Notes under the pieces: generated by a model
Databases searched by the model: none
The model's input: only the letters and a program-made list of their open reading frames with translations
What the model was told of the DNA's origin: nothing
Assembly: GCA_963769935.1 (NCBI GenBank)
Contig: CAVYNY010000010.1
Span: 352,001-416,000, forward strand
Direction: 5' to 3'
DNA length: 64,000 nt
Source of the DNA: an uncultured delta proteobacterium
GTDB lineage: Bacteria; Desulfobacterota; Desulfobacteria; Desulfobacterales; JAFDCJ01
Translations under genes and position numbers: made by a program
Part shown: piece after piece, positions 14,354 to 32,775 of the stretch
Layout of the letters: every line of letters begins with the position of its first letter
Position numbering within the stretch: the stretch's first letter is position 1

Positions 14354-16117
14354 ATGGAACCAATTATCACTGGAAGCGTTAAACGGAAACTTACTGCTAT
14401 CCTCAGTGCGGATGCTGTTGGCTACAGCCGTCTGATGAATGATGACGAAGAGGCGACACTCAAAACCCTGAATACCCACCGAGCTTTGATGACCAAACAT
14501 ATCGAGCAGCATAGAGGACGGGTTGTGGATACGACGGGTGACAATCTGTTGGCTGAGTTTACCAGTGCCGTGGATGCCGTGACCGGTGCCGTGGAGATTC
14601 AGCGGGAGCTTGCCGCGCATAATGCCGAATTGTCCGCCGAACGCAGAATGTTGTTTCGCATCGGAATTAATGTCGGCGATGTGATTGAGGAGAAGGATCG
14701 AATTTACGGTGATGGCGTCAACATTGCAGCTCGAGTAGAAGGGCTTGCAAAAGAAGGCGGCATCTGCATTTCGGGAAGGGTCTATGACCAAGTCGAAAAC
14801 AAATTGGATTTGGCGTATGAATTTTTGGGGGACCAAAAGGTCAAAAACATAACGAGACCGGTAAAAGTTTATCGGGTGCAGTTGGAAACCGAAACTGCCG
14901 TTTCGGATATGAGCGAAAGAATCGAGCTGCCCGACAAGCCCTCCGTCGCAGTTTTGCCCTTCAATAATATGAGCGGAGATCCGGAACAGAATTATTTCGC
15001 CGATGGCATCAGTGAAGACATCACCACCGAACTTTCGCGCTTTCATTCCATTTTTGTGATTTCGCGCAACTCAGCCTTCACCTATCGGGGTGAGGCGGTT
15101 GATGTACGACAGGCCGGACAAGAACTGGGAGTCGAGTATATTGTCGAGGGCAGCGTTCGCAAGGCCGGCAGGAAGATTCGCATAACGGCTCAACTCATTG
15201 CCGTCGCCACAGGCCATCATGTTTGGGCGGACCGTTACGACCGGGAAATGGAGGATCTATTTGCCGTCCAGGACGAAATAACGGAAACCATTGTCTCCAC
15301 CCTCGTGGGACGAATCGAAGCCGCCGACATTGACCGGGCCAAGCGCAAAACTACCGAAAATATGGTTGCGTATGACTATCTTCTGCGGGGTCTGGATTTT
15401 CACAAAAGCGGCCGAATTTCAATGGATGATTCGACTAAGGCGGTCGAGATGTTCACGAAGGCCGTTGAACTCGATCCCGGTTTTGCCCGCGCCCACGCCT
15501 GGCTGGCATGCGCCACTGCCAATCTTTGGCCGAAGAATCCCAGCCGGGAGCAATATGATGTGCTGTTGGATAACGCCATGACAGAAGTACAAAAAGCGCT
15601 TTCGCTCGATGAGAATGAATGTGAAGCCCATCGGATTATGGGTGCCATTTATCTGCAAAGAAGGCAATTCGACCGGGCGGAATATCACTACTCGAAGGCG
15701 GTTGCGCTCAACCCCAACTACGCCTATATTGCGGCCAAGGTTGCCGATTTCCTCAGCTACACCGGCCGGCCACAGGAGGCGGAGGCATCGGTGAAACGGG
15801 CGATGCGCCTCAATCCCCACCATCCGGACTGGTATTGGCAGGAGTTGGGCCTGGCGTATTATGTCGGTGGTCAATATGAGGAGGCCATACGCACTTTCAA
15901 CCGTATCACCAACCTGGTGGAATTTGATTATACTTATCTGGCGGCTTGCTGTGCCGAGCTGGGCGAAATCGAAAAAGCGAAATCTTATATAGAGGCCCTG
16001 CTCCGATTGATGCCCGGCGCATCCGTCAAATATTTTGAAGAAACACAGCCATTTAAAAACAATTCTGATCTGAAGCGCCTGCTCGATGCGCTGCGCAAGG
16101 CGGGACTGCCGGATTAA
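14354..16117 (+). CDS. Class III adenylate/guanylate cyclase with TolB-like and TPR domains
   Basis: RKLTAILSADAVGYS, GDGVNIAAR, KPSVAVLPFNNMSGDPEQNYFADG, TPRs, ending LRKAGLP. Confidence 0.92.
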   Translation: MEPIITGSVKRKLTAILSADAVGYSRLMNDDEEATLKTLNTHRALMTKHIEQHRGRVVDTTGDNLLAEFTSAVDAVTGAVEIQRELAAHNAELSAERRMLFRIGINVGDVIEEKDRIYGDGVNIAARVEGLAKEGGICISGRVYDQVENKLDLAYEFLGDQKVKNITRPVKVYRVQLETETAVSDMSERIELPDKPSVAVLPFNNMSGDPEQNYFADGISEDITTELSRFHSIFVISRNSAFTYRGEAVDVRQAGQELGVEYIVEGSVRKAGRKIRITAQLIAVATGHHVWADRYDREMEDLFAVQDEITETIVSTLVGRIEAADIDRAKRKTTENMVAYDYLLRGLDFHKSGRISMDDSTKAVEMFTKAVELDPGFARAHAWLACATANLWPKNPSREQYDVLLDNAMTEVQKALSLDENECEAHRIMGAIYLQRRQFDRAEYHYSKAVALNPNYAYIAAKVADFLSYTGRPQEAEASVKRAMRLNPHHPDWYWQELGLAYYVGGQYEEAIRTFNRITNLVEFDYTYLAACCAELGEIEKAKSYIEALLRLMPGASVKYFEETQPFKNNSDLKRLLDALRKAGLPD

Positions 16118-16304
16118 GAGAGAATGATATTTGGCAGATTACGAATTGATCTTGCATCGCCTCTGTCTCACTTCTTAAGCATATCAAGTAAATGGTAGGT
16201 AGAGATAAAAAGTTTGCCTCGTAACCCGCTGCCAGCTCAGGTTTCAGTTGAAATGTCGCACCCGAATCTCATGGCTCGCCTCTTAGTCACTAAGGGATAG
16301 CCGT

Positions 16305-19300
16305 ATGAAATGCCCTCAATGCAGCCTCGATAATAAACTCAACAAGAAATTCTGTACGAATTGTGGGTCAAAACTAATCTTAAAATGTCCGAATTGTGAT
16401 ACGGAGATTGAGGCCGGAGATATTTTTTGCGGCGAGTGCGGCCATGACTTGCGGATGTCGAATGAAGCCTTGTCTATCGACCGCAGTCAACCTCACTCTT
16501 ATACGCCAAAATTTCTGGCAGATAAGATTCTCACCTCCCGCAATTCTCTGCAGGGCGAACGCAAGCAGATCACCGTCCTGCTCGCCGACATCAAGGACTC
16601 TACCGAGTTGATCAAAGACCTCGATCCGGAGGCTGCACAGCAGATTCTGGACCCCGCGATCCAAATCATGATGAACAGTGTCCACCGTTTCGAGGGCACG
16701 GTAAACCAGGTGCTGGGAGACGGTATTATGGCGCTGTTCGGGGCGCCCATCGCCCATGAAGATCATGCCCTGAGGGCCTGTTATGCCGCTCTGGCAATGC
16801 AAAAGGCGATGAATGAATATGCCAACGAGATGCGCCAGTCCCATGGAGCCGAGTTGCGTATCAGGGTGGGCCTGAATTCCGGCGAAGTCGTGGTTCGGAC
16901 CATTGGCAATGATTTGCATATGGACTACTCGGCCGTAGGCTCGACGACCCATCTGGCAGCCCGTATGGAACAAATTGCTATACCCGGCACGAGTCGAATG
17001 ACGGAGGAAACCCTCAGATTGGTGGAGGGCTTTGTCAAGGTTAATCCTTTAGGACCTGTACCTGTCAAAGGGATGACAGAACCGGCTGAAGTGTTTGAGC
17101 TGGTCGGCGCCAGTACGGTTCGCAGACGCCTGCAGGCCGCAGTCTCTCGAGGACTGACCCGGTTTGTGGGGCGGGACAAAGAGATCAATGAGCTGAACCG
17201 GAATCTGGAACTGGTAGAAGCGGGCCATGGCCAGGTTGTCGCGGCGGTGGGTGAGGCCGGTGTCGGCAAGTCCCGTCTGGTATACGAGTTTGTCCAGTCT
17301 CACCGCACACAGGGATGGCTGGTACTTGAAAGCGCTTCGGCCTCCTACGGCAAAGCGACGCCTTATTTTCCGGTGATCGATCTGCTCAAACATTATGTTC
17401 ATGTGGAGGACGGCGACGACGCCCGCTCTATTCGGGCCAAGGTTACCGGACAGATCCTTACCTTGGACGAGACGCTTCAGGAGACCATTCCGGCGCTGCT
17501 ATCACTCCTGGATACCCTGCCGGAAGACAGCCCCTTTCTGAGGCTCGACCCGATGCAAAGACGCCAGAACATTCTCGATGCTATCAAACGGATTCTGTTG
17601 CGCGAGAGCCGGGCGCAACCGCTTTTGGTTGTCTTCGAAGATTTACACTGGATTGACTCAGAAACCCAGGCCCTGCTCGACATCCTGATCGCAAGCCTGC
17701 CAACGGCCCGCCTGTTGCTTTTGGTAAACTATCGGCCGGAGTATCGGCATCACTGGGGAAGTAAAACCTATTATACCCAGGTAAGGCTTGACCCGCTTCC
17801 ACCCGCAAGTGCGGGGGTTTTTCTGCAGAACCTGCTCGGCAGGGACGCAAGCCTGCAACGCCTCAAACATCTCCTCGTTGAACGGACGGAGGGCAATCCT
17901 TTTTTCCTGGAAGAGTGTGTGCGGACGCTGGTCGAAACACAGGCACTGGCCGGCGAACCCGGCGCGTTTCGCCTGATCCAGGAACTCCCTGATATTCACG
18001 TGCCGGCCACAGTCCAGGTGCTGTTGGCCGCCCGCATGGATCGGCTGCCACAGGCAGAGAAGCGTCTATTGCAAACCGCGGCCGTGATCGGCAACGAGGT
18101 GCCCTCACCCTTGCTTCAAACCATTGCTGAAATGCCGCAGGAGGGACTGCAGCGCGGGCTTGCCTACCTCCAGACTGCCGAATTTCTCTATGAAACCAGC
18201 CTTTTCCCGGAGCGGATTTACAGCTTTAAACACGCCCTCACCCAGAACGTTGCCTACCAGTCGCTGCTGGTCAGCATGCGGCAAAAAATTCATCAGCGCA
18301 TTGGCCGGGTGCTGGAAAAGCAGTTTGCGGTGACTGCCGAAACGCAGCCTGAACTGCTGGCCCATCACTACGCCGAAGCCGGCTGCCATAGGGAAGCGGC
18401 CGTTTACTGGCGACGAGCAGGTGTGCGTGCCAGTGCCCGCTCTGCCTATGTGGAATCTATTGCACACCTCAACAAGGGGCTTGCGGAACTTCAAACGCTG
18501 CCTGAAACCACCGCACATGCCGAACTCGAACTGGCGCTGCAGTTTGATCTCGCCTCAGCACTGATCGTCTCCAAAGGTTGGATCGCTCCCGAGGTGGAAC
18601 AGGCCTACACCCGGGCATTGGATCTATGCCGGCAGGTGGGAGAGACACCTACGCTGATTCCCGTGCTGCAAGGGCTGCGCCGACTCTATGCGTTGCGAGG
18701 TGCTCCAGGTGACGCACAAAGGGCACAAGAACTGGGAGGGCAGATTCTCACTGAAGCTCAGCGTCAAAATGATACCGCGTTATTGCAGGAGGCCTATTGG
18801 GCTATTGGGCAAACTTACTGTGTTCTGGGAGAACTTGAGCCCGCACGCAGGCATATGGAGCAGAGCAGCGCAACATATACACCCAAACCTCTTAACTCCC
18901 AGGACGCCCGTGATGCAGCGGGCACCGAGATTGCCTGCCTGATGCACTATGCTTACGTCCTGTGGTCCCTCGGCTATCCGGATAAGGCACTCGAAACCGG
19001 CCAGCAGGGCTTAACCTTAGCCCACGAACTTTCGCACCCGTTTACCCTGGCATTTGCCTTTTCCGGCATGGCGCAGCTTAATCAATTCAGGCGGGACGTA
19101 CAAGCAACACTTAAGCAGGCAGATGCCATGATTGCCCTCTCCAACGAGCAGGGATTTTCACTATGGATGAACTTGGGAACGCTGTTTCGTGCTTGGTGCC
19201 TGGCCATGCAGGGGCAACCAGAGGATGGGATAGTCCAGATGGAGCGGTCTATGGCAAGCAATCTGGTCGGCTCATTTCATGCCTTACGACCCTGGCATGA

Positions 19301-19697
19301 TGCCTTATTGGTCGAAGCATACGGGGCAGCAGGACAGACCGCAGCGGGTTTAAACAAGGCAGCCAAGGCACTGGCTGTTGTGGAGAAAACCGGTTTTCGC
19401 TTCTATGAAGCGGAGTTGGGCCGGCTTTATGGGGAGCTGCTGTTGATGCGGCCGGTCCCCGATGTCTCTGAGGCCGAAGCCTGTATCCAGCGAGCCCTTG
19501 ACCTTGCTGACAGCCAGCAATCAAAATCACTGGAACTCCGAGCCGCTATCAGTCTGAGTCGGCTTTGGAATCAGCAGAACAAAAGACTAGAAGCCCGAAA
19601 ACTGCTGACGAAAATTTACGGCTGGTTCACCGAGGGATTTGGCACTGCCGACTTAAAGGAAGCCAAAGCGCTTATTGATGATCTGTCGGATAAATAG
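16305..19697 (+). CDS. Double zinc ribbon + class III cyclase + STAND/AAA ATPase + TPR protein
   Basis: Four CxxC pairs, ERKQITVLLADI, GDGIMALFGAP, FVGRDKE, GEAGVGKSRL, EDLHW, GNPFFLEE, WFTEGFGTADL. Confidence 0.93.
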   Translation: MKCPQCSLDNKLNKKFCTNCGSKLILKCPNCDTEIEAGDIFCGECGHDLRMSNEALSIDRSQPHSYTPKFLADKILTSRNSLQGERKQITVLLADIKDSTELIKDLDPEAAQQILDPAIQIMMNSVHRFEGTVNQVLGDGIMALFGAPIAHEDHALRACYAALAMQKAMNEYANEMRQSHGAELRIRVGLNSGEVVVRTIGNDLHMDYSAVGSTTHLAARMEQIAIPGTSRMTEETLRLVEGFVKVNPLGPVPVKGMTEPAEVFELVGASTVRRRLQAAVSRGLTRFVGRDKEINELNRNLELVEAGHGQVVAAVGEAGVGKSRLVYEFVQSHRTQGWLVLESASASYGKATPYFPVIDLLKHYVHVEDGDDARSIRAKVTGQILTLDETLQETIPALLSLLDTLPEDSPFLRLDPMQRRQNILDAIKRILLRESRAQPLLVVFEDLHWIDSETQALLDILIASLPTARLLLLVNYRPEYRHHWGSKTYYTQVRLDPLPPASAGVFLQNLLGRDASLQRLKHLLVERTEGNPFFLEECVRTLVETQALAGEPGAFRLIQELPDIHVPATVQVLLAARMDRLPQAEKRLLQTAAVIGNEVPSPLLQTIAEMPQEGLQRGLAYLQTAEFLYETSLFPERIYSFKHALTQNVAYQSLLVSMRQKIHQRIGRVLEKQFAVTAETQPELLAHHYAEAGCHREAAVYWRRAGVRASARSAYVESIAHLNKGLAELQTLPETTAHAELELALQFDLASALIVSKGWIAPEVEQAYTRALDLCRQVGETPTLIPVLQGLRRLYALRGAPGDAQRAQELGGQILTEAQRQNDTALLQEAYWAIGQTYCVLGELEPARRHMEQSSATYTPKPLNSQDARDAAGTEIACLMHYAYVLWSLGYPDKALETGQQGLTLAHELSHPFTLAFAFSGMAQLNQFRRDVQATLKQADAMIALSNEQGFSLWMNLGTLFRAWCLAMQGQPEDGIVQMERSMASNLVGSFHALRPWHDALLVEAYGAAGQTAAGLNKAAKALAVVEKTGFRFYEAELGRLYGELLLMRPVPDVSEAEACIQRALDLADSQQSKSLELRAAISLSRLWNQQNKRLEARKLLTKIYGWFTEGFGTADLKEAKALIDDLSDK

Positions 19698-21843: not shown

Positions 21844-23094
21844 TTAATTTAGGGTTGTAAAGTTGCATTGGAATTGTCCAATCGGCTTTTGCATAAATTC
21901 TGCAATTTCCAATTCGGATTCCAACTCAACATGCGGATTTCCTTTTGCCAGGCCGGCGAGAATAGAAAATTCAAAACATTCTGCCTTTGGATTGGCAGCC
22001 CTGGCAGCATCCACGATTTCTTTTACTCCCTGCTTTTGGAAATCCCGGGCGAAATTTGCCAGTATCTGCTCGGCTTCCTCCATATTTGTTAAGGGGAGCA
22101 CGGTCTCAAATTGATTAATGCTGCGCCGGGCGGAAAATCCACCGACCGCACCGAAATGCTTGCTGATGTATCGGCCCATGGTTCTGATTCCTTCCTGCAG
22201 CGCCGTATGGCCTAATTTTTCGATAATGGACTCAGGATCTGCCAGTGTAAAAAGAAGGACGGTATAGCTCTCATTTATATTTTTATGCTTCAAGTCAGAC
22301 TGATACCGAACTTTGAACTGGCGTTTGGAATACAGGCCGGTTAGTTCATCCTCTAAGCGTTCAATACTGTTAATGATTTCCTCATAAAAGGCGAGGTTGC
22401 TACTCTCAAATTCCTGCGGGTTTCCCTGAAAAACAATCTGTTTGTCGGAAAGAACAAGGATACGGTTGGAGATGAAAAGAACATCCGGAATATCGTGGCT
22501 CACCAGAATTGCGGTGAATCCGTATTTCTTTTTGTACTCGGCGATCATTCCGAGGATGGCATTGCGCCTGACAGGGTCCTGGCCGGTGGTCAGCTCATCA
22601 AACAGGACAATTTTGGGATCGGTCACGAGGGCGCGTGCCAGTGCCACGCGCTTCTGCATGCCGCCGGAAAGCTCTGAGGGGTGCCTGTAGATCACATCCG
22701 CAAGCTCGGTTTGCTCTATTTTGGCCATCACCTTGTCTGTGATCGCCTGCTTGCTCAGCCGGGTATTTTCCTGCAGCGGCAAAGCAATATTTTCAAACAC
22801 CGTCAGAGAATCGAAAAGCGCGTTGCCTTGAAACATGTAGCTGATCCGGCCGAGGTATTCATTCCACTCGGACCTTTTCATCTTTTCAAGGGGTTGGCCG
22901 CAAAAAAGCACGCTGCCCATATCCGGTCGAAGCAAACCGATGATATGCTTGAGAACTACGCTTTTGCCGGCACCGCTCTTGCCGATAATGGTGGTGACTT
23001 CATCTTCAAATATTTGAAGATTAACCCGGTCGAGTATTATGCGGCCGCCAAAACTCTTGGTAACATTTTTAAATTCGACTATCGGCAAGGTCAT
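21844..23094 (-). CDS. MlaF/Mkl-type ABC ATPase fused to a degenerate GGDEF domain
   Basis: GKSGAGKS, FQGNALFDSLTV, LSGGMQKRVALARA; C-terminal DELTGLYSKR...LGH...SARRSINQF. Confidence 0.82.
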   Translation of the reverse strand: MTLPIVEFKNVTKSFGGRIILDRVNLQIFEDEVTTIIGKSGAGKSVVLKHIIGLLRPDMGSVLFCGQPLEKMKRSEWNEYLGRISYMFQGNALFDSLTVFENIALPLQENTRLSKQAITDKVMAKIEQTELADVIYRHPSELSGGMQKRVALARALVTDPKIVLFDELTTGQDPVRRNAILGMIAEYKKKYGFTAILVSHDIPDVLFISNRILVLSDKQIVFQGNPQEFESSNLAFYEEIINSIERLEDELTGLYSKRQFKVRYQSDLKHKNINESYTVLLFTLADPESIIEKLGHTALQEGIRTMGRYISKHFGAVGGFSARRSINQFETVLPLTNMEEAEQILANFARDFQKQGVKEIVDAARAANPKAECFEFSILAGLAKGNPHVELESELEIAEFMQKPIGQFQCNFTTLN

Positions 23095-23455
23095 TGCGGC
23101 ACCCCTCTTCCATGGCAAGGTTCAGGCGATCTAATCTCTCTCCGAAACCGCTGACACCGCTTCCAATGCCATCAACGGTTTGGCTTATGCAGGGCCGTTG
23201 ACCAAGAGGCTGGCCATCTACTTTCTCCAAACCAACCTGTTTTAAAATTAATCATCAAATTAGATCGATCAAGAGAGTTTGAGATGGCTGAAAGCAGCAT
23301 CCGCAAAGTAACGAGCACCTTTAGCTGACACATTTGAAATGAAGACGTTTAAATTTTTGATTGACATTGCGTTAAAATCTATCCGATATGATATTTAGTC
23401 TTCAGAACCCGGTGGTTGGCAAATTGGGAGATTTTAGGCTTAAACAACCAAAAAG

Positions 23456-23744: not shown

Positions 23745-23813
23745 AAAACCCGGAAAACTCTACTTTTTACGATTTCATCAAATTTGGGATTTGAAAATTT
23801 TTGGGAGGGCAGT

Positions 23814-25335
23814 ATGAGGAAAATATCCCTTGGGGAATGTTTTACGGATACCTTTTTAGCCCGCGGTGATAAGCCGGCGATTTCTTTCCTGCGGGGCGGT
23901 AAACTCGAAACCCGGATTTCCTATAGCGAATTAGATCGGCACGCCAACCGCATGGCCTGTGTTTTCCAAAACCTGAGGGTGAATAAAGGCGACCGGGTCA
24001 TACTTTTTATCCCGAAATCCCTAATCTTTGTGGTGGCGCATCTGGCGTTGCAAAAAATTGGTGCCATTGCCGTGCCTTTAAATCCGGGTTTTAAGAAATC
24101 CGAAATGGCCTATTTGCTTCAGGATGCGGATGCAAAAGTAATCATTGCGGAATCTGCTGCTGAAACCCTCATCCAAGAAATAGATCCCGATCTGAACCGG
24201 CTGGTCATTGACACCCGCCAACCTTATCAGAATATCGACCTGGTGCAAAAGGCTTCCGAACATTTCACGCCGGTCGAAATACACGCTGATGATCCGGGTC
24301 TTATCATTTACACTTCGGGCACCACCGGTAAACCCAAAGGGGCGGTTCTGACCCAGATGAACCTGATCCATGACGCCCGCAATATCATTAAAATTTGGGA
24401 AATAAGCCAGGCGGATACCCTCTGCCATGCGCTGCCGCTTTTTCATGTCCACGGACTTTGTTTTGCCCTGCACACGTCGCTGTTGGCCGGCGGTCATGTG
24501 GTCATGCTCGATCAGTTTTCTCCCCCCGGTTATTGATACCTTGCGCCGACAGGATGGACCCCGGGTGTGTACGATCTTTATGGCGGTGCCTGCCATGTAC
24601 GGAAAATTGATGCAATATCTCGGTGATGAAAGACCTCATTTTGGACACATGCGCTTGTGGACTTCGGGGTCCGCTCCGCTTCTGCCGGCCGACTTTGAGC
24701 GCATCCACCAAATATTCGGCAAAGAACCGGTGGAAAGGGAGGGAATGTCTGAAACCGGAATGAATTTTTCAAATCCGCTGCACGGCAAAAGAAAGCCGGG
24801 ATCCATCGGCCTGCCTTTGCCGGAACTGGAAGTCAGGATCGTTGACCCGGTTGCCGGAGAGGATGTAATGCCCGGTCAAACCGGTGAATTCCGGTTGAAA
24901 GGGCCCGCGATAACTGCGGGGTACTGGCGCACACCGGAAGAAACCGAACATGCTTTCGAAGGCGACTGGTTTAAAAGCGGTGATCTGGGACACATTGATG
25001 ATGACGGCTATTACTATCTCACCGATCGGATTAAACATATTATCATCTCCGGCGGCGAAAATATTTCTCCCAAAGAAGTGGAGATCGTCATCAACCGGAT
25101 CGAGGGCGTGGCGGAATCATCGGTGGTGGGAATTGCCGATGAAAAGTGGGGCGAAAAGGTCGTGGCGGCCGTTGTAAAAATGCCCGGTGCCGATGTCGGC
25201 GAAAATGAAATTCAAGCGTATTGCAAACAACACCTGCACGACTGGAAGTGCCCCAAAGTAATTTTCTTTGTAAAAGAGCTGCCCCGCAACACCATGGGCA
25301 AAGTGTTAAAAGAAGAAGTGAAAAAACTGTTCTAA
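23814..25335 (+). CDS. Acyl-CoA synthetase (malonyl-CoA synthetase MatB-like), frameshifted near 24525
   Basis: IIYTSGTTGKPKGA and HALPLFHVHGL in ORF 23784..24536; SGSAPL, GMSET, SGDLG, GGENISPKE, PRNTMGKV in ORF 24427..25335. The frame changes at a C6 run. Confidence 0.88.
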
Positions 25336-26897: not shown

Positions 26898-28208
26898 TTA
26901 AATCGTAACCACTTCCGGCAGGGGTTTTATAAAATTTTGGCGAAGACTGTAGGTATAGGCGCCCTGGTTTGGAATCATCAGAATATCACCGGGTTCAATA
27001 CCCGCCCCCCAATACGCATAGCCCCAGACATCATGCGGGGTGCACAGGGAGCCCAGGACATGGCAGGGCTTTTCATTCATGGCCGGCCGCGTCAGGTTCA
27101 GAATTGGAAAATAGTCGGTCTCGAAGCGTTCCCAGCCGACGGCATTGGTCCCGGCATCGGTTATCACCAGATCCGGGGCCTTTTTATCGACCACTGAAAA
27201 CAGCAGTTGGACGGCATCGTTGCAGACCCAGCGGCCGGGTTCCAGGCATATCCGGCAGGGTGCGACGGCCAACAGATGCCGGTGAATGGCGGTGCTGAGC
27301 CGCTCGGCGAATTCTTCAATGCCGGTCGCCGGCAGGCGATGGTGCGCCGCAACCGGTTCCGTCTGCTGCCCCAAAGCCTCCAGCAGTTTGCCCTCCGGAG
27401 TTCCGGCCGGCTGCAGCCATTCGCCCTGAGACGGCCAGTACCCGCCTCCGATATCGATAAACTCCAGCTGGGAAAGAAACGACGCGGGCATTTCAGCCAG
27501 CACCTTGCCAAGGATGCGGATAAATTCGATCTGGGGAGCGGGTGAAAGGTTCCAGCTGGTGTGAAACTGCAGTCCCAGCAGCCGGACATGCCGGCAGCGG
27601 CTCACCTCATCCCAGAAGGATGACAGCGCTTGGGGGACAATGCCGAATTTGCGCCAGAGGCCGTTCGGATTGACGGTTAAGCGCACCCCGCAGCGGACGC
27701 ACGTGTCGGATTTAGCCGCAAGCGCTTCCAACCGGTGCAGCTCGCCCGGACTGTCCATAAGGACAATGACCCGGTCGGTGTGCGCCAATGCCAGCTGCAG
27801 CTCGGCAGCCGTTTTCCCAGGGCCGCTGAAGACAATGTCCCGGGCACCGATGCCCAACGCCATCTCCAGCTCCAGTCCGCTGGAAACATCCAGCCCAAAG
27901 CCCGCCGCCAGCATTATGCGGGCCACTTCGGGGTGGTTGTTGCTTTTCACGGCATAATAGAATGCAGCCGCAGGCAACAAATTTTCAAAGGCTTTTTTCA
28001 GCTGAGCGGCCCTGCTTTTTAAAATTGCCGATTCCTGAAGATATAAGGGCGCCGGATGATCTTCAATAATATGTAGATAATGATCCCGGCGGTTGAAATG
28101 ATGCTGCACAAACGACCGCAGCTCATCCCAGGGGAACAGGGGGGTCGGATGTTCCGGCATCAGATTCAGCCTGCGAAGCAAATCATATTGATTTTCCGGC
28201 TTTGACAT
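26898..28208 (-). CDS. PLP-dependent decarboxylase, alanine-racemase fold (LysA/ornithine decarboxylase family)
   Basis: YAVKSN (PLP lysine), DVSSGLE, FSGPGKT, KFG, DIGGG, EPGR, GSLCTPHD, GAYT; start MSKPEN at 28208. Confidence 0.9.
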   Translation of the reverse strand: MSKPENQYDLLRRLNLMPEHPTPLFPWDELRSFVQHHFNRRDHYLHIIEDHPAPLYLQESAILKSRAAQLKKAFENLLPAAAFYYAVKSNNHPEVARIMLAAGFGLDVSSGLELEMALGIGARDIVFSGPGKTAAELQLALAHTDRVIVLMDSPGELHRLEALAAKSDTCVRCGVRLTVNPNGLWRKFGIVPQALSSFWDEVSRCRHVRLLGLQFHTSWNLSPAPQIEFIRILGKVLAEMPASFLSQLEFIDIGGGYWPSQGEWLQPAGTPEGKLLEALGQQTEPVAAHHRLPATGIEEFAERLSTAIHRHLLAVAPCRICLEPGRWVCNDAVQLLFSVVDKKAPDLVITDAGTNAVGWERFETDYFPILNLTRPAMNEKPCHVLGSLCTPHDVWGYAYWGAGIEPGDILMIPNQGAYTYSLRQNFIKPLPEVVTI

Positions 28209-28212
28209 TAGT

Positions 28213-29478
28213 TCAATCGATCTCCAGGGCGAGCTTTTCGAGAAGCTCCCGGCATTGCGTAGCCGCCTCGCCGACCGCATCCGGCTCAAAGATAATGTGT
28301 CCCAACAGCCACGAATCGTAATCGTCGGGCGGTAGTTTAATTGAATGCCCCGCTTTGCGGATGAGATGGATTTCATGCACCCGGCCATCCTGCCGCAGTC
28401 GATGGGCATCGATTTTTTTTAAAATTCCGCCTTGGCGGGCATGCAGGCGCAAGCCTATAAAAGCATGCAAATCAGATGAATGATTCAAGCGCAGGGGTCG
28501 CCTCTGGGAAAAATCCAGAAAAAGCTTTAATATATCCAGGCCCCGCGACCGGCGTAATAGAAATGGAAGGCAGTCGCCGCCCGGCCGGGGTGCCAGCTCC
28601 AGCAAAACGATCCGGCCCTCGCAGACCATAAAGTCCAGCATGCACAAGGCCCGTTCGAGTCCCAGAGCAGCCGCACTCCGGGAAAGGGTTTGAAGCAAAT
28701 TACGTTCATCAATTTCAGCGGGCAGCGCCGCCGGTAGATAATAGCCCAACGCAGTACCGAACGGTTTCCAGGGAGCGAGGATTTTGCGGGTTAGCCGGAT
28801 AACCTCCACCCGACCGTCTTCTATAATAAAATCACAGCTGTATTCCGAGCCCCCAACACACTCCTCAGCCAGGATGGCAGCATGATCCGCTCGGCAGGAC
28901 TGGTAGAGGCGCTGGACCCGTCGCTGCTCCAAACCGCTTTGAATCTTAAAAAAGCTTTGCTCACATTCGTCAGCACTGTTGCAGCGGAAGATCAATTCAC
29001 TGCCGCTGCCGCTCAACGGTTTTAAAACACAGGCAACGCCCAGTTCCCGGAAATAATTCGCGGCCTCGTTCGCCGATCTGACAAGCCGATTCCTGGGGGT
29101 ATAAAGCCCCTGCTTCTGCCAAAGGGTTTTTGAAAGAAATTTATCCCGGCAGTTTTGGACGGCCCGGACGGATGGGTAGGGCAGCCCGTACTGCTGGGCC
29201 AGAACAGAGGCCAGCTCCATGGATTCACAATCGAAGCTGACGATGCCGCCCAATCGCATATTTTCTTTCAGCAGGTGCCGCTCCAGCAGCTGCCGCGCCC
29301 GGTCGTAGTCGGATAAATCGCACAGGATTTCTTCCGCCGGCATAGGACATGGTTCTTGAGCCTGCCGGCGGACCGCGGGTTCGGTGAGAAACAGGGCCCG
29401 TTCGGGACAACTGCGACGGATCCAGTCGATATAGTCCGGGGTTGTGCCGACAACCAGTACTTTGGTGTTAACCTGCAA
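28213..29478 (-). CDS. ATP-grasp domain protein (amino-acid ligase-like)
   Basis: CRDKFLSK, VLKPLSGSGSELI, AEECVGGSEYSCD, LLELAPRPGGD; TTG start with GGAGAG RBS overlapping the GNAT stop. Confidence 0.88.
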   Translation of the reverse strand: MQVNTKVLVVGTTPDYIDWIRRSCPERALFLTEPAVRRQAQEPCPMPAEEILCDLSDYDRARQLLERHLLKENMRLGGIVSFDCESMELASVLAQQYGLPYPSVRAVQNCRDKFLSKTLWQKQGLYTPRNRLVRSANEAANYFRELGVACVLKPLSGSGSELIFRCNSADECEQSFFKIQSGLEQRRVQRLYQSCRADHAAILAEECVGGSEYSCDFIIEDGRVEVIRLTRKILAPWKPFGTALGYYLPAALPAEIDERNLLQTLSRSAAALGLERALCMLDFMVCEGRIVLLELAPRPGGDCLPFLLRRSRGLDILKLFLDFSQRRPLRLNHSSDLHAFIGLRLHARQGGILKKIDAHRLRQDGRVHEIHLIRKAGHSIKLPPDDYDSWLLGHIIFEPDAVGEAATQCRELLEKLALEID

Positions 29479-30436
29479 CAGCCGCTCTCCGGTCGATGAC
29501 AACATCCTGCCAGATCTCCTGGGCCGGCAGGTTTCCAATCTTGTATAAAGGCCGCGGCGTTAGATGAAATCTCGTTTTCCAGTTAAAATCTCCGCAAAGG
29601 AAATCGACCTCTTCCAATCTTTGCTGGCAGGCCCATTCGAGATGATGAAAATTGATCAATTTGGCAATGCCGGGAAAATCGGGGTCCGTGCCGCCGGCCA
29701 AAACCGTATAGGTTGAGTTCCAGACGGCCCCGATATCCACGGCGGCCATCCGGCTGCCGATAAGCACCGTGGTGATCCGCAGCAGGTTGTTGGCCTGCAG
29801 CCATGCGGCAAGTTTTTCAAATGCTTTAAAAAAACGCCGATCATTGAAGTAGGAATACTCTTTGAAGCTATCCAGGTTCATGCGAAACATGTGTTCAATG
29901 TCCGCATAGCAATTATACCGATAGGAAAGGCCGCCGGCGGCAAGCCGATTAATTTCATGTTTAATTTTTTTAAGTGATTTGCCCGAAAAGGTCTTTAGGT
30001 ATTGCTGGAAGGAATAATCATATTGTTGCGGAAAAAAAAGATATCCAACTTCATCTAAATCCACCATGGAATCACGCTGAAAAAAAGGAGATCCGGTTAG
30101 ATATCTGATCTTGGCGGTGTCCGGAATGTGGTTTAATAATGCAGATGCCGTCGCAGCATCCTCCGCCAGGATTTTATTTTGTTCCAGCCATGTTTTGCCC
30201 TGCCAGACTTCACCGGGAAAATGACCGAAGCACTGCTCCTCATCAATCCAGCTCAGGGCCAGCATTCCGCAAAATCTGCCATTTTGCCGGGCTACCAGAA
30301 AATAGGGGCTATAATTAAATTGTGATTGAAAACAGGCTCTGACCGGCCAAAGATCAAAGAGGCGCTCTTTGGGCCAATGCCGCTGCCACAGGCTTTTGGC
30401 CTCTTCGAGGTCATTGCAGACACTAATTTTGAACAT
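29468..30436 (-). CDS. GNAT-superfamily protein (Acetyltransf_6 / FemAB-like fold)
   Basis: FQQYLKTFSGKSLKKIKHE, LAGGTDPDFPGIAKLI, VDFLCGDFNWKTRF. Confidence 0.8.
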   Translation of the reverse strand: MFKISVCNDLEEAKSLWQRHWPKERLFDLWPVRACFQSQFNYSPYFLVARQNGRFCGMLALSWIDEEQCFGHFPGEVWQGKTWLEQNKILAEDAATASALLNHIPDTAKIRYLTGSPFFQRDSMVDLDEVGYLFFPQQYDYSFQQYLKTFSGKSLKKIKHEINRLAAGGLSYRYNCYADIEHMFRMNLDSFKEYSYFNDRRFFKAFEKLAAWLQANNLLRITTVLIGSRMAAVDIGAVWNSTYTVLAGGTDPDFPGIAKLINFHHLEWACQQRLEEVDFLCGDFNWKTRFHLTPRPLYKIGNLPAQEIWQDVVIDRRAAVAG

Positions 30437-30446
30437 AATATGCCTC

Positions 30447-30872
30447 CTACTGCCGCAATGTGACGTTCAAAACACTATGGCTTCCACCGAAATAAAGTTG
30501 GGAAAAACTTTTTGCGATTTCCGGATCGTACGGTTTGCAGCTGAAAACATCCAGGTAAACCGTGTTGGTCTGGTTTGCAAAATGGGCGGATATCAGGGAA
30601 GTTTCGATGAGCTGAACCATGGAGTAGCCGGCCACGCGTTCGTCTTCACCGAAATGCACCACCTGGGTATCGCCGAAACGCTTCATTTCAATTAAATCAC
30701 AAAGCTCAATAACGAACCGCCGAATGGTTTCAGCGCAACGGATTTTATCCGGGTCACAGTCATAGATATCGATGGCGGAGGCTATTCCCCAGACATTTTT
30801 GGCGATGGCTGCCTCCAATATTCCATGGCCAACTGCGCAGGGCGGATTTTCAACCTGTTGTGAAATTTGCAT
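30447..30872 (-). CDS. Pyruvoyl-dependent S-adenosylmethionine decarboxylase-family proenzyme (SpeD/SpeH-like)
   Basis: IDIYDCD, GYSMVQLIETSLISAH (processing-site region), YLDVFSC. Confidence 0.87.
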   Translation of the reverse strand: MQISQQVENPPCAVGHGILEAAIAKNVWGIASAIDIYDCDPDKIRCAETIRRFVIELCDLIEMKRFGDTQVVHFGEDERVAGYSMVQLIETSLISAHFANQTNTVYLDVFSCKPYDPEIAKSFSQLYFGGSHSVLNVTLRQ

Positions 30873-30991
30873 TATTTATCATTCCTCCTATAATCGGTGT
30901 TGCTGCTTTTTCAGTCATCTGCTAGATTGTTTGAGAATAAGATGTATGGAACCGGGTGCTTTAATTTTTCCGGATAGACTTTGCACCCTGC

Positions 30992-31007
30992 AGCATATTT
31001 CATGCCA
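30992..31007 (-). promoter_or_regulatory. Sigma-54 (-24/-12) promoter of the AdoMetDC-GNAT-ATP-grasp-decarboxylase operon
   Basis: Minus strand TGGCATGAAATATGCT = GG-N10-GC, about 120 bp upstream of ATG 30872 and next to a sigma-54 activator gene. Confidence 0.75.
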
Positions 31008-31362
31008 TATTGTTGGTAGTTTCATAACCTCCTTATATATTGGATTATTTCCGGTTTGGGGAAATATATCCAGTTTGGAAGTTGCCACTATTTTAGTATT
31101 ATAATACCGTTTTTAGTTGAAATATGAAAAATAATACCATAAAAAGCGTTTGTGAATTTTTGGGGCTGGAGAACTTGCCCGCAATCCTGGTTGACAAATG
31201 CTTTTTTAAATTAATTATAAATGATTACTGTAAGTTATCATGACAGCCGGTTAATTTGCGAATCGTCGGTAAAACGGTATTTAATTACCGTTCTTAGTGC
31301 CCGCTCAAGTTGGCTTCAACGGCTGCCAAAGGGAATATTTTTCCGCTCCCAAGGAGGTTGTG

Positions 31363-32775
31363 ATGCTCATTCGTTTAGGTTTGGCAATTAAGGACAAGAG
31401 CCTGCGGCGGGAACTGTTGCACAAGTTGTCCGAATCCGATGTCCGGGTTGAAACCTTCGGCCCTTTGCGGTCGGTATGGCAACAAGTGGTGCGCAGCGGA
31501 TGCGATGTAATCGTTATCAGCGAATCGCTTATCATTCGGCCGATCGATACCGGTATTGAAATACTCAATGAATTGCCTGAAAACCCCACGATCGTCATTA
31601 TTCATGACAGTGATTCGTCCGAAGAACATGCCCTGCTGGCCGCCGCCGGCGCCGACGTCGTTCTTTATGCCGGCATTTCAAAAAAAAGCATGATCGAGGC
31701 CGTTGAAACAGCGTTGGAATCCCGCCGCCAATTTATTCAAAGGAGACGGTACGATCGCCGGGGGCAGACGGATCCTAAAATCTCCGATTTCGTTTCAGAA
31801 AGCCAGGCCATGCAGGTTTTCATGGAAGATGTCCATCAGGTGATTCGCAGCGACTCGCCCATACTGCTGGTGGGGGAAACCGGCGTTGGCAAGGAACATC
31901 TGGCCAAAGCCATTCATGCCGGGAGTCCGCGCTCAACCGGACCCTTTGTCTCGATCAATACGGCGGCCATGCCCGAACAACTGCTCGAAAGCGAGTTATT
32001 TGGTCACGAGCAGGGCGCTTTTACCGGTGCCATTCGATATCGTCGCGGCGCCTTTGAAATGGCCCACGGCGGAACCATATTTTTGGATGAAATCGGGGAG
32101 ATGCCGCTGCATTTGCAGGCCACGCTGCTTCGGGTTCTGCAGGACTATGAAGTCAAACCGGTGGGCGGGGAAAACGCCATTGAATTGGATGTGCGGGTCA
32201 TTGCAGCTACAAACCGGAACCTGGAAGAACTTGTCGAACTGGGTAATTTCCGGCAGGACCTTTACTACCGTCTAAGCGTCATGAAGCTCACGATTCCGCC
32301 TTTGCGGTATCGCAAGGAAGACATTCCTACGATGGTCAGGCGCTTTATGGCATATTTCCGCTACAAAATCGGTCGGGAAGTCAACGGCCTGGCCGATGAA
32401 GCGCTGCACGCGCTTTGCAGCTATGACTGGCCCGGAAATGTGCGCGAGCTGATGAATGTCATTGAGCGCGGCATATTGCTTTGCAAAACTGATAAAATTA
32501 CCATGGCTGAACTACCGGATGTGTTTCAGGGAAATGTTCGGAATCCGGGCGGTGATATGCCCGGCGTGAATTGGGGCGCTAATAATTGGCTCGACAAAAC
32601 GCTGCCGGAACTGCAAAAAGAAATCATGGATCAGGTTGAGCGGGTCTATCTCGAAATGGCCTTAAAGAAAACACGGGGGCGTGTCGACCAAACGGCCAGG
32701 ATCGCAGGCATCCATCCCAGGGGCTTGTACAACAAGATGAAACAGTTTGACCTCCGCAAAGAAGATTTCAAATAA
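31363..32775 (+). CDS. Sigma-54-dependent transcriptional activator (NtrC/Fis family) with atypical receiver-like N-terminus
   Basis: [38 protein letters not shown]-terminal HTH. Confidence 0.93.

Follow-up and report, generated by a model that had tools for sequence, protein, structure and literature searches.

What would a bacterium make with two decarboxylases and two amide-forming enzymes encoded side by side? The question is raised by a 64,000-nucleotide stretch of DNA (the window) from an uncultured delta proteobacterium of the Desulfobacterales (GenBank GCA_963769935.1, contig CAVYNY010000010.1, positions 352,001 to 416,000), in which four genes follow a sigma-54 promoter. The first-pass annotation placed an S-adenosylmethionine decarboxylase (AdoMetDC)-like gene at the head of this operon and proposed an undescribed pathway. 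The product would still belong to the class proposed there, the acylated or aminoacylated amines. The chances are about even that the operon is self-contained and builds a small, soluble, amide-linked putrescine conjugate capped with an amino acid.

The operon and its setting

The features concerned are as follows, in window coordinates.

30447..30872, minus strand: gene 1, SpeDC, predicted pyruvoyl-dependent L-ornithine decarboxylase of the AdoMetDC fold; 141 aa; PF02675
29468..30436, minus strand: gene 2, tandem-GNAT FemX/Sbb17-like transferase, predicted to depend on aminoacyl-tRNA; 322 aa; PF13480
28213..29478, minus strand: gene 3, ATP-grasp ligase of L-amino acid ligase type; PF13535; start codon inferred
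26898..28208, minus strand: gene 4, alanine-racemase-fold decarboxylase dependent on pyridoxal phosphate (PLP), with a C-T-P-H-D loop; FigC/BtrK/SbnH-like, not LysA; 436 aa
30992..31007, minus strand: sigma-54 -24/-12 promoter, TGGCA-N7-TGC, ~120 nt before gene 1
31363..32775, plus strand: divergent sigma-54 enhancer-binding protein with a receiver-like N-terminus; GAFTGA; Sigma54_activat passed

All four genes lie on the minus strand. The tight coupling first described is reproduced from the open reading frames (ORFs): in order, the junctions are a 10 nt gap, an overlap and a 4 nt gap. The start of gene 3 was placed at a TTG behind GGAG and overlaps the gene 2 stop. The GG-N10-GC promoter (31007-30992) and the divergent GAFTGA activator are likewise as reported, and both are conserved. 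A 22-codon ORF overlaps the gene 1 start; it is unlike the head-peptide family described below. No terminator-like site was found downstream of gene 4. The source genome is 8.0 Mb and 96.7% complete, the GC content of the window is unremarkable, and the nearest loci in a scan with gene 4 carry Desulfobacterales titles.

Gene 1 and the likely source of putrescine

Gene 1 passes PF02675; it does not pass the AdoMetDC model TIGR03330 (28.5, cut-off 75.65). A clade of SpeD homologues, SpeDC, decarboxylates ornithine only, according to the accessible part of PMC10407285. Gene 1 is identical to the assayed Desulfotignum phosphitoxidans ornithine decarboxylase (ODC) domain (Fig. S5 of that paper) at 76 of 114 positions counted by eye (~67%), and its S92 aligns with the mutated S229 of that domain. 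The processing residues S92 (pyruvoyl), H97 (+5) and C112 (+20) are present in 47/47 gene 1 copies, as are the SpeDC-diagnostic Q87, T91, F98 and Y106, positions mapped by order and identity with the assayed domain and not from Fig. 8 of the paper. After the catalytic His, gene 1 reads H-F-A-N; true SpeD copies read H-x-W-P, with a conserved Pro. A direct sequence search with gene 1 against solved structures gave no match. Judged by the identity and these residues, gene 1 is very probably an ornithine decarboxylase of the SpeD fold that supplies putrescine, and the earlier AdoMetDC assignment is withdrawn.

Spermidine synthase was already noted as absent from the window, and no canonical one was found at genome scale: three weak matches in long frames all fall below the TIGR00417 cut-off. 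This absence is what would be predicted if gene 1 is an ornithine decarboxylase, and putrescine is then the likely amine. Decarboxylation of S-adenosylmethionine followed by aminopropyl transfer was rejected on the TIGR03330 result, the identity to SpeDC and the lack of any SpeE above cut-off. In the source genome no other SpeD, no SpeA-length, aspartate aminotransferase (AAT)-fold or pyruvoyl arginine decarboxylase and no AguA, NspC or DHS was found; SpeDC is the one enzyme recognised there that would lead from an amino acid to putrescine. The genome has one agmatinase and four saccharopine-dehydrogenase-family genes, among which there may be a homospermidine synthase.

Three genomes that carry the cassette also encode, at other sites, SpeD and SpeDC fused or in tandem, with 52-57% identity to gene 1 (G425, L224; G444, L225; G445, L223).

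Conservation of the core genes

The scan baited with gene 4 gave 74 loci, 73 of them orthologues (48-76%); L074 (23%) was excluded. Neighbourhoods were counted in the 59 orthologues whose upstream sequence reaches 4.5 kb or more. The GNAT and ATP-grasp genes accompany gene 4 in the same order in 59/59 loci, and an orthologue of the divergent activator adjoins 52/59. A SpeD-family match is found in 45/59; two of these are remnants, which leaves 43 intact and gene 1 lost or remnant in 16/59. With the ligase as bait, a match was found in 22 of 401 genomes of the phylum (~5% of those sampled). Twenty loci were fetched from these, the source genome and one split assembly being left out. All three core genes are present in 20/20, with ligase identity down to 32%, and gene 1 in 18 of 19 evaluable loci. 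The genes thus co-occur in other genomes, as anticipated; of the proposed four-gene unit, three genes are invariant and gene 1 is not. The core is therefore GNAT, ATP-grasp ligase and decarboxylase. SpeDC was lost recently at L002 and L028, where what remains is a C-terminal stub in one case and a gene with an in-frame internal deletion in the other.

Gene order is constant in the orthologous and ligase-baited loci while regulators and flanks vary: TetR-family regulators stand in for the activator at some loci, and the commonest other neighbours are seen in only 8/73. Core enzymes are also fused to each other, GNAT to ligase in L067 and P0249 and ligase to decarboxylase in L061. Among the recurring neighbours of orthologous loci there is no conserved exporter, receptor, nonribosomal peptide synthetase (NRPS)-independent siderophore (NIS) synthetase, NRPS or carrier protein, or mur gene. 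A siderophore or antibiotic cluster was considered and rejected, as NIS, carrier, exporter and receptor genes are not conserved beside the operon.

Locus titles extend beyond Desulfobacterales to Nitrospirae, Zixiibacteriota, Ignavibacteriaceae, Hydrogenedentota, Verrucomicrobiota and Victivallales. Desulfogranum marinum DSM 2058 and Desulfamplus magnetovallimortis are cultured carriers. Searches of plasmids and viral contigs with the GNAT gave no match, and searches of phages with gene 1 gave nothing beyond 31% matches.

A C39-like peptidase gene lies near the cassette in eight loci (L001, L002, L031, L035, L038, L039, L045, L064). A different pair, an ATP-grasp and an FslC-like decarboxylase, occurs at L116, L118 and L119, apparently within sugar or polysaccharide gene clusters.

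Gene 4 and its substrate

Gene 4 scores 147.8 against the LysA model TIGR01048 and does not pass its cut-off (297.9). A separate LysA with a C-E-S loop, on contig C15, scores 329.5. Gene 4 is thus not the sole lysA of the genome, a possibility that would have undone the proposed pathway, and the reading as a spare LysA was rejected. Its own loop is C-T-P-H-D; C-T-P is kept in 70/71 copies, and the Glu that follows the catalytic Cys in LysA is absent. The PLP machinery is complete (K88, H216, E323 and R326 in 71/71; C389 in 70/71); the Gly loop, altered Cys loop and specificity helix are of the FigC/SbnH/BtrK type. A profile of the gene 4 family also ranks FigC, BtrK and SbnH first (127.5, 126 and 123.9 bits), narrowly ahead of LysA. 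These three enzymes remove the alpha-carboxyl from side-chain-ligated amino acids, as described in the accessible text of PMC7857480.

In the pocket alignment, H392 corresponds to FigC H357 and W359 to SbnH W309. The residues that bind citrate carboxylates are lost: gene 4 has no counterpart of the insertion that bears SbnH R304, a His takes the place of SbnH K347, and L422 stands opposite FigC R387, although R423 is its neighbour. E360 and E363 are conserved in the pocket and would suit a substrate with a distal amine. The FslC model scores 67 (cut-off 500), and no NIS or carrier-protein partner occurs among recurring neighbours. A link to exosortase or exopolysaccharide systems was rejected: the cut-offs of TIGR03019 for the associated FemAB protein and TIGR03099 for the associated decarboxylase are both missed (18.5 against 260 and 98.7 against 478), and no polysaccharide-locus genes are found among the recurring neighbours.

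Genes 2 and 3

The model of gene 2 (pLDDT 89) matches FemX (Z 17.5) and Sbb17/Sba18 (Z 17.2) best, over its whole length. The FemX match covers 275 aligned residues at a root-mean-square deviation of 4.3; CoA-type tandem GNATs reach at most Z 13.8. A basic helix, presumably the tRNA contact, is conserved (K153 in 63/67 copies, K156 in 66/67). On this model, aminoacyl-tRNA is a likelier donor than acyl-CoA. A direct sequence search with gene 2 against solved structures gave no match, and an Atlas search returned only unnamed clusters.

A profile of the gene 3 family is closest to 4dim, a structural-genomics protein, and to the L-amino acid ligases BL00235, BacD and RizA, with D-Ala-D-Ala ligases far behind. 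Its segment E296-x3-R300-x-G-G is invariant in 28 sequences; an acidic-x3-Arg segment is described as catalytic in LdmS (PMC9486568, accessible text). LAL_C2 matches weakly, at 19.1 bits in gene 3 and 28.9 in the fusion P0249 (cut-off 29.4). The placements of genes 2 and 3, with no NRPS or carrier among recurring neighbours, uphold the suggestion of two amide-forming enzymes that work without an NRPS.

Probable control by sigma-54

On the operon strand, 58/65 activator-linked copies have a relaxed -24/-12 pattern upstream, where base shuffles predict 3.3; two locus pairs are identical duplicates, without which the count is 56/63 distinct copies. On the opposite strand the pattern occurs in 2 of 65. 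Copies without the activator have it in 4/19, against 1.6 expected. The motif travels with the activator, and the operon is likely switched on by sigma-54.

The activator has NtrC-type features, a GAFTGA AAA+ domain and a -24/-12 target. Its N-terminus gives no receiver Pfam match at E 0.01, and Ser53 occupies, in 51/53 activators, the position that we take from the usual receiver pattern to be the phospho-Asp. No kinase recurs among the neighbours of the activator. These three observations suggest that the activating signal is probably not phosphorylation.

Near relatives were found in four sediment RNA runs of one study, with contigs that span the whole set of four genes. Added up over contigs, depth is 9-1004 across the operon bins and 0-7 across the activator, and falls at the promoter bin. 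This is only a hint of natural transcription, as the contigs give neither level nor strand, DNA is possibly present, and the runs were retrieved using the same stretch. RNA contigs of relatives also show small indels near 24521-24559, inside the region of a split AMP-binding gene (see below).

Loss of SpeDC and a possible demand for putrescine

Eighteen genomes with a cassette that lacks intact SpeDC were compared with 29 that have SpeDC, the latter being the source genome and 28 picked from SpeDC-bearing loci. A strong agmatine deiminase is present in 9/18 SpeDC-less and 2/29 SpeDC-bearing genomes. A decarboxylase with a G-P-T-C-D loop, which we take to be an ODC-type signature, is present in 7/18 SpeDC-less genomes, two of the genes being in speD-speE clusters; the SpeDC-bearing genomes showed none, a call made mostly on score and length and not on the motif. 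One or other gene is found in 16/18 SpeDC-less genomes against 2/29. SpeDC loss is not tracked by AAT-fold (2/47) or pyruvoyl (3/47) arginine decarboxylases, or by agmatinase (31/47). In G402 (L128:3777-13112) a potABCD-like transporter, aguA and aguB adjoin the activator of a SpeDC-less cassette, as also at L004 and L005. The pattern supports a demand for putrescine by the core, as a lead and not as proof.

A small charged protein at the operon head

Of ~82 loci, 16 distinct ones have by profile an ORF of 45-70 aa, acidic and then basic, that separates the promoter from gene 1, and inspection by eye adds ~10 (examples are L009:6973-7152, L026, L031, L035, L036, L042, L043, L047, L049-L051, L061, L062, L072, L089, L006). 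The segment K-x-x-x-K-R-x-H-R-K-x-T-x-K is conserved. The peptide has 137 homologues; it occurs in 2/401 genomes of the phylum, both times beside the cassette, and in 8/47 genomes of the comparison set, always in cis. It was found neither at the cassette nor elsewhere in the source genome. The alignment contains no conserved Ser and no invariant terminal residue for carrier use, and Atlas leads are all under 0.9. The peptide is dedicated to the operon but dispensable, and is treated as an accessory.

Other small proteins, with signal-peptide-like starts, lie upstream of speDC at L097, L100, L101 and L104, in three cases between promoter and gene.

Proposed pathway

In the proposed pathway, SpeDC would convert ornithine to putrescine. 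The ATP-grasp ligase would then couple an amino diacid to putrescine through an activated carboxyl, for which the side chain of Glu or Asp is the simplest candidate. Gene 4 would strip the alpha-carboxyl that is left, the reaction that BtrK carries out with gamma-glutamyl-BtrI as substrate. The products, 4-aminobutyryl- or beta-alanyl-putrescine, would be amide look-alikes of homospermidine and spermidine. Finally, the FemX-like enzyme would use aminoacyl-tRNA to cap a free amine with an amino acid. As the cassette has no conserved exporter next to it, the product is probably retained in the cell, where it could replace polyamines on induction or serve as a stress solute. The exact structure is offered tentatively and is probably not right in every detail.

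Several observations weigh against this pathway. True LysA nearly ties in the profile ranking of gene 4 (122.5 bits against 127.5, 126 and 123.9), and a fold search, which does not separate subfamilies, puts a LysA first. The likeness to FigC and SbnH fits decarboxylation of an acyl-ornithine equally well, a route that bypasses putrescine. Characterised L-amino acid ligases use the alpha-carboxyl (LdmS, PMC9486568, accessible text), and ligation there would leave gene 4 nothing to remove. In 80/80 metagenome loci, a good number of which are short, sister GNATs lack any cassette gene beside them; the family can therefore function on its own.

The SpeDC comparison is also weaker than its counts suggest. 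A quick tree, built without G253, needs eight changes of SpeDC state and has four well-supported independent pairs, on which a sign test, run with 15/18 instead of 16/18, is not significant. Counting arginine decarboxylase plus ureohydrolase brings the comparison to 16/18 against 16/29 (p 0.02), and adding second SpeD-family copies brings it to 16/18 against 20/29 (p 0.16). G401 and G415 lack SpeDC, and neither marker was found in them; metagenome-assembled genomes are incomplete. All 13 SpeDC genomes with SpeA also have NspC; SpeA/NspC-type pathways can bypass putrescine (PMC13625781 and PMC13683441, each accessible in part), which would explain the SpeA-bearing SpeDC genomes as an exception.

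The sister GNAT family itself (~300-370 aa; L139-L218) stands alone, with no conserved neighbour.

Alternative explanations

It is rather improbable, but not negligibly so, that the cassette is an inducible writer of putrescine on a macromolecule, either a 60-residue basic protein or peptidoglycan stems. For the cell wall, which is an unlikely target, the ligase would link putrescine to a stem carboxyl as an amide, gene 4 would decarboxylate stem-bound meso-diaminopimelate, and an amino acid of the side chain would be added by the FemX-like enzyme. There are precedents in the diamine-linked peptidoglycan of Selenomonas and in side-chain ligases of the ATP-grasp type, although the literature search returned nothing on them. 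FemX and FemA are the top structural matches of the GNAT, its sisters act without the cassette and no exporter is conserved, all of which favour this explanation. However, Sbb17/Sba18, which act on a small molecule, match just as well (Z 17.2, with FemX at 17.5), the ligase falls among the small-molecule L-amino acid ligases with D-Ala-D-Ala ligases far behind, and no mur gene is clustered beside the operon.

Modification of a protein, or synthesis on a peptide carrier, is quite unlikely. A mark based on putrescine or an amino acid would be placed on the head peptide or on some host protein that contains a comparable segment, or the head peptide would itself serve as a BtrI-like carrier. BtrK and MccE do act on protein or peptide substrates (accessible part of PMC7857480), and the head peptide is found solely beside the cassette; however, it is missing from most cassettes, including that of the source genome, and lacks the residues expected of a carrier.

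A FigC/SbnH-type route is very doubtful. Here the ligase would acylate a diamino acid such as ornithine on its side-chain amine, and gene 4 would decarboxylate the product to an acyl-diamine. SpeDC would supply the other diamine arm of a diamide that is symmetrical or resembles a chelator. The top profile rank of FigC and the shared pocket His and Trp are consistent with this; the loss of the citrate-carboxylate-binding residues and the lack of a conserved NIS synthetase, receptor or exporter are not, and SpeDC would be largely redundant. That these are ordinary genes mis-read (a spare LysA or acid-stress decarboxylase pair with loosely linked ligases) is barely credible: automatic annotation does name gene 4 diaminopimelate decarboxylase, but the TIGR01048 scores separate it from the true LysA, gene order is invariant, fusions are present and there is no antiporter.

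Neighbouring genes in the window

An AMP-binding (acyl-CoA synthetase) gene lies in two overlapping frames at 23784-25335. At 21844-23118 there is an ABC ATPase whose C-terminal extension of ~200 aa has no Pfam match at 1e-8. Two neighbouring proteins with adenylate/guanylate-cyclase domains are encoded at 14354-19697, one with tetratricopeptide repeats, the other with zinc ribbons and an AAA domain.

Significance

Bacterial polyamine chemistry is under revision, with SpeDC described in 2023 and agmatine-first routes in 2023-2026. The cassette gives SpeDC a new partner set, found in ~5% of sampled genomes of the phylum and in several other anaerobic phyla, and predicts an unreported class of amide-linked polyamines or an unreported modification. 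If a macromolecule is the target, the ATP-grasp ligase, tRNA-dependent transferase and trimming decarboxylase would together perform a polyamine modification of a kind new to bacteria. The cassette could also provide a new tRNA-dependent transferase and a ligase that accepts diamines. Small and self-contained, it has no NRPS or carrier proteins and occurs in cultured strains, and is hence directly testable.

Comparison with known systems

No description of the cassette was found in open-licence PMC and bioRxiv literature, in keeping with the original remark that no characterised pathway with this gene set was recognised.

Gene 1 shares with SpeDC the self-processing Ser/His/Cys, the Gln/Thr/Phe/Tyr signature and the identity to the Desulfotignum domain given above. 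In the accessible text of PMC10407285 the partners of SpeDC are SpeD/SpeE, CASDH/CASDC or HSS, and the term 'ATP-grasp' has 0 occurrences; here the partners are a GNAT, an ATP-grasp ligase and a decarboxylase.

Gene 2 shares the whole-length tandem-GNAT fold (Z ~17) and conserved basic helix of FemX and the streptothricin-type aminoacyl-tRNA-dependent synthases Sbb17/Sba18, at an identity of 10-15%. Gene 3 has the ATP-grasp fold and the acidic-x3-Arg segment in common with BL00235, BacD, RizA and LdmS (PMC9486568, accessible part), and scores weakly, below cut-off, for LAL_C2; it differs in its predicted amine partner, a diamine, and in its partner genes.

In rhizoferrin (FigA/FigC, or FslA/FslC) and staphyloferrin B (SbnH) biosynthesis, amide formation followed by PLP-dependent decarboxylation yields an acylated diamine, and the pocket His and Trp are shared with gene 4 (PMC7857480, accessible part). 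In contrast to these systems, the ligase of the operon is an ATP-grasp and not an NIS enzyme, the citrate-binding basic residues are lost, transport genes are absent and the FslC cut-off is missed.

The butirosin module (BtrJ/BtrK/BtrI) also combines an ATP-grasp ligase, BtrJ, with an alanine-racemase-fold decarboxylase. The C-T-P-x-D loop of gene 4 is found in BtrK, which works with BtrI (accessible part of PMC7857480). Unlike that module, the operon has no conserved acyl carrier protein or aminoglycoside genes, and it adds a source of putrescine and a FemX-like enzyme. By analogy, the pathway logic would be like that of BtrJ/BtrK or FigA/FigC, but the operon is a member of neither.

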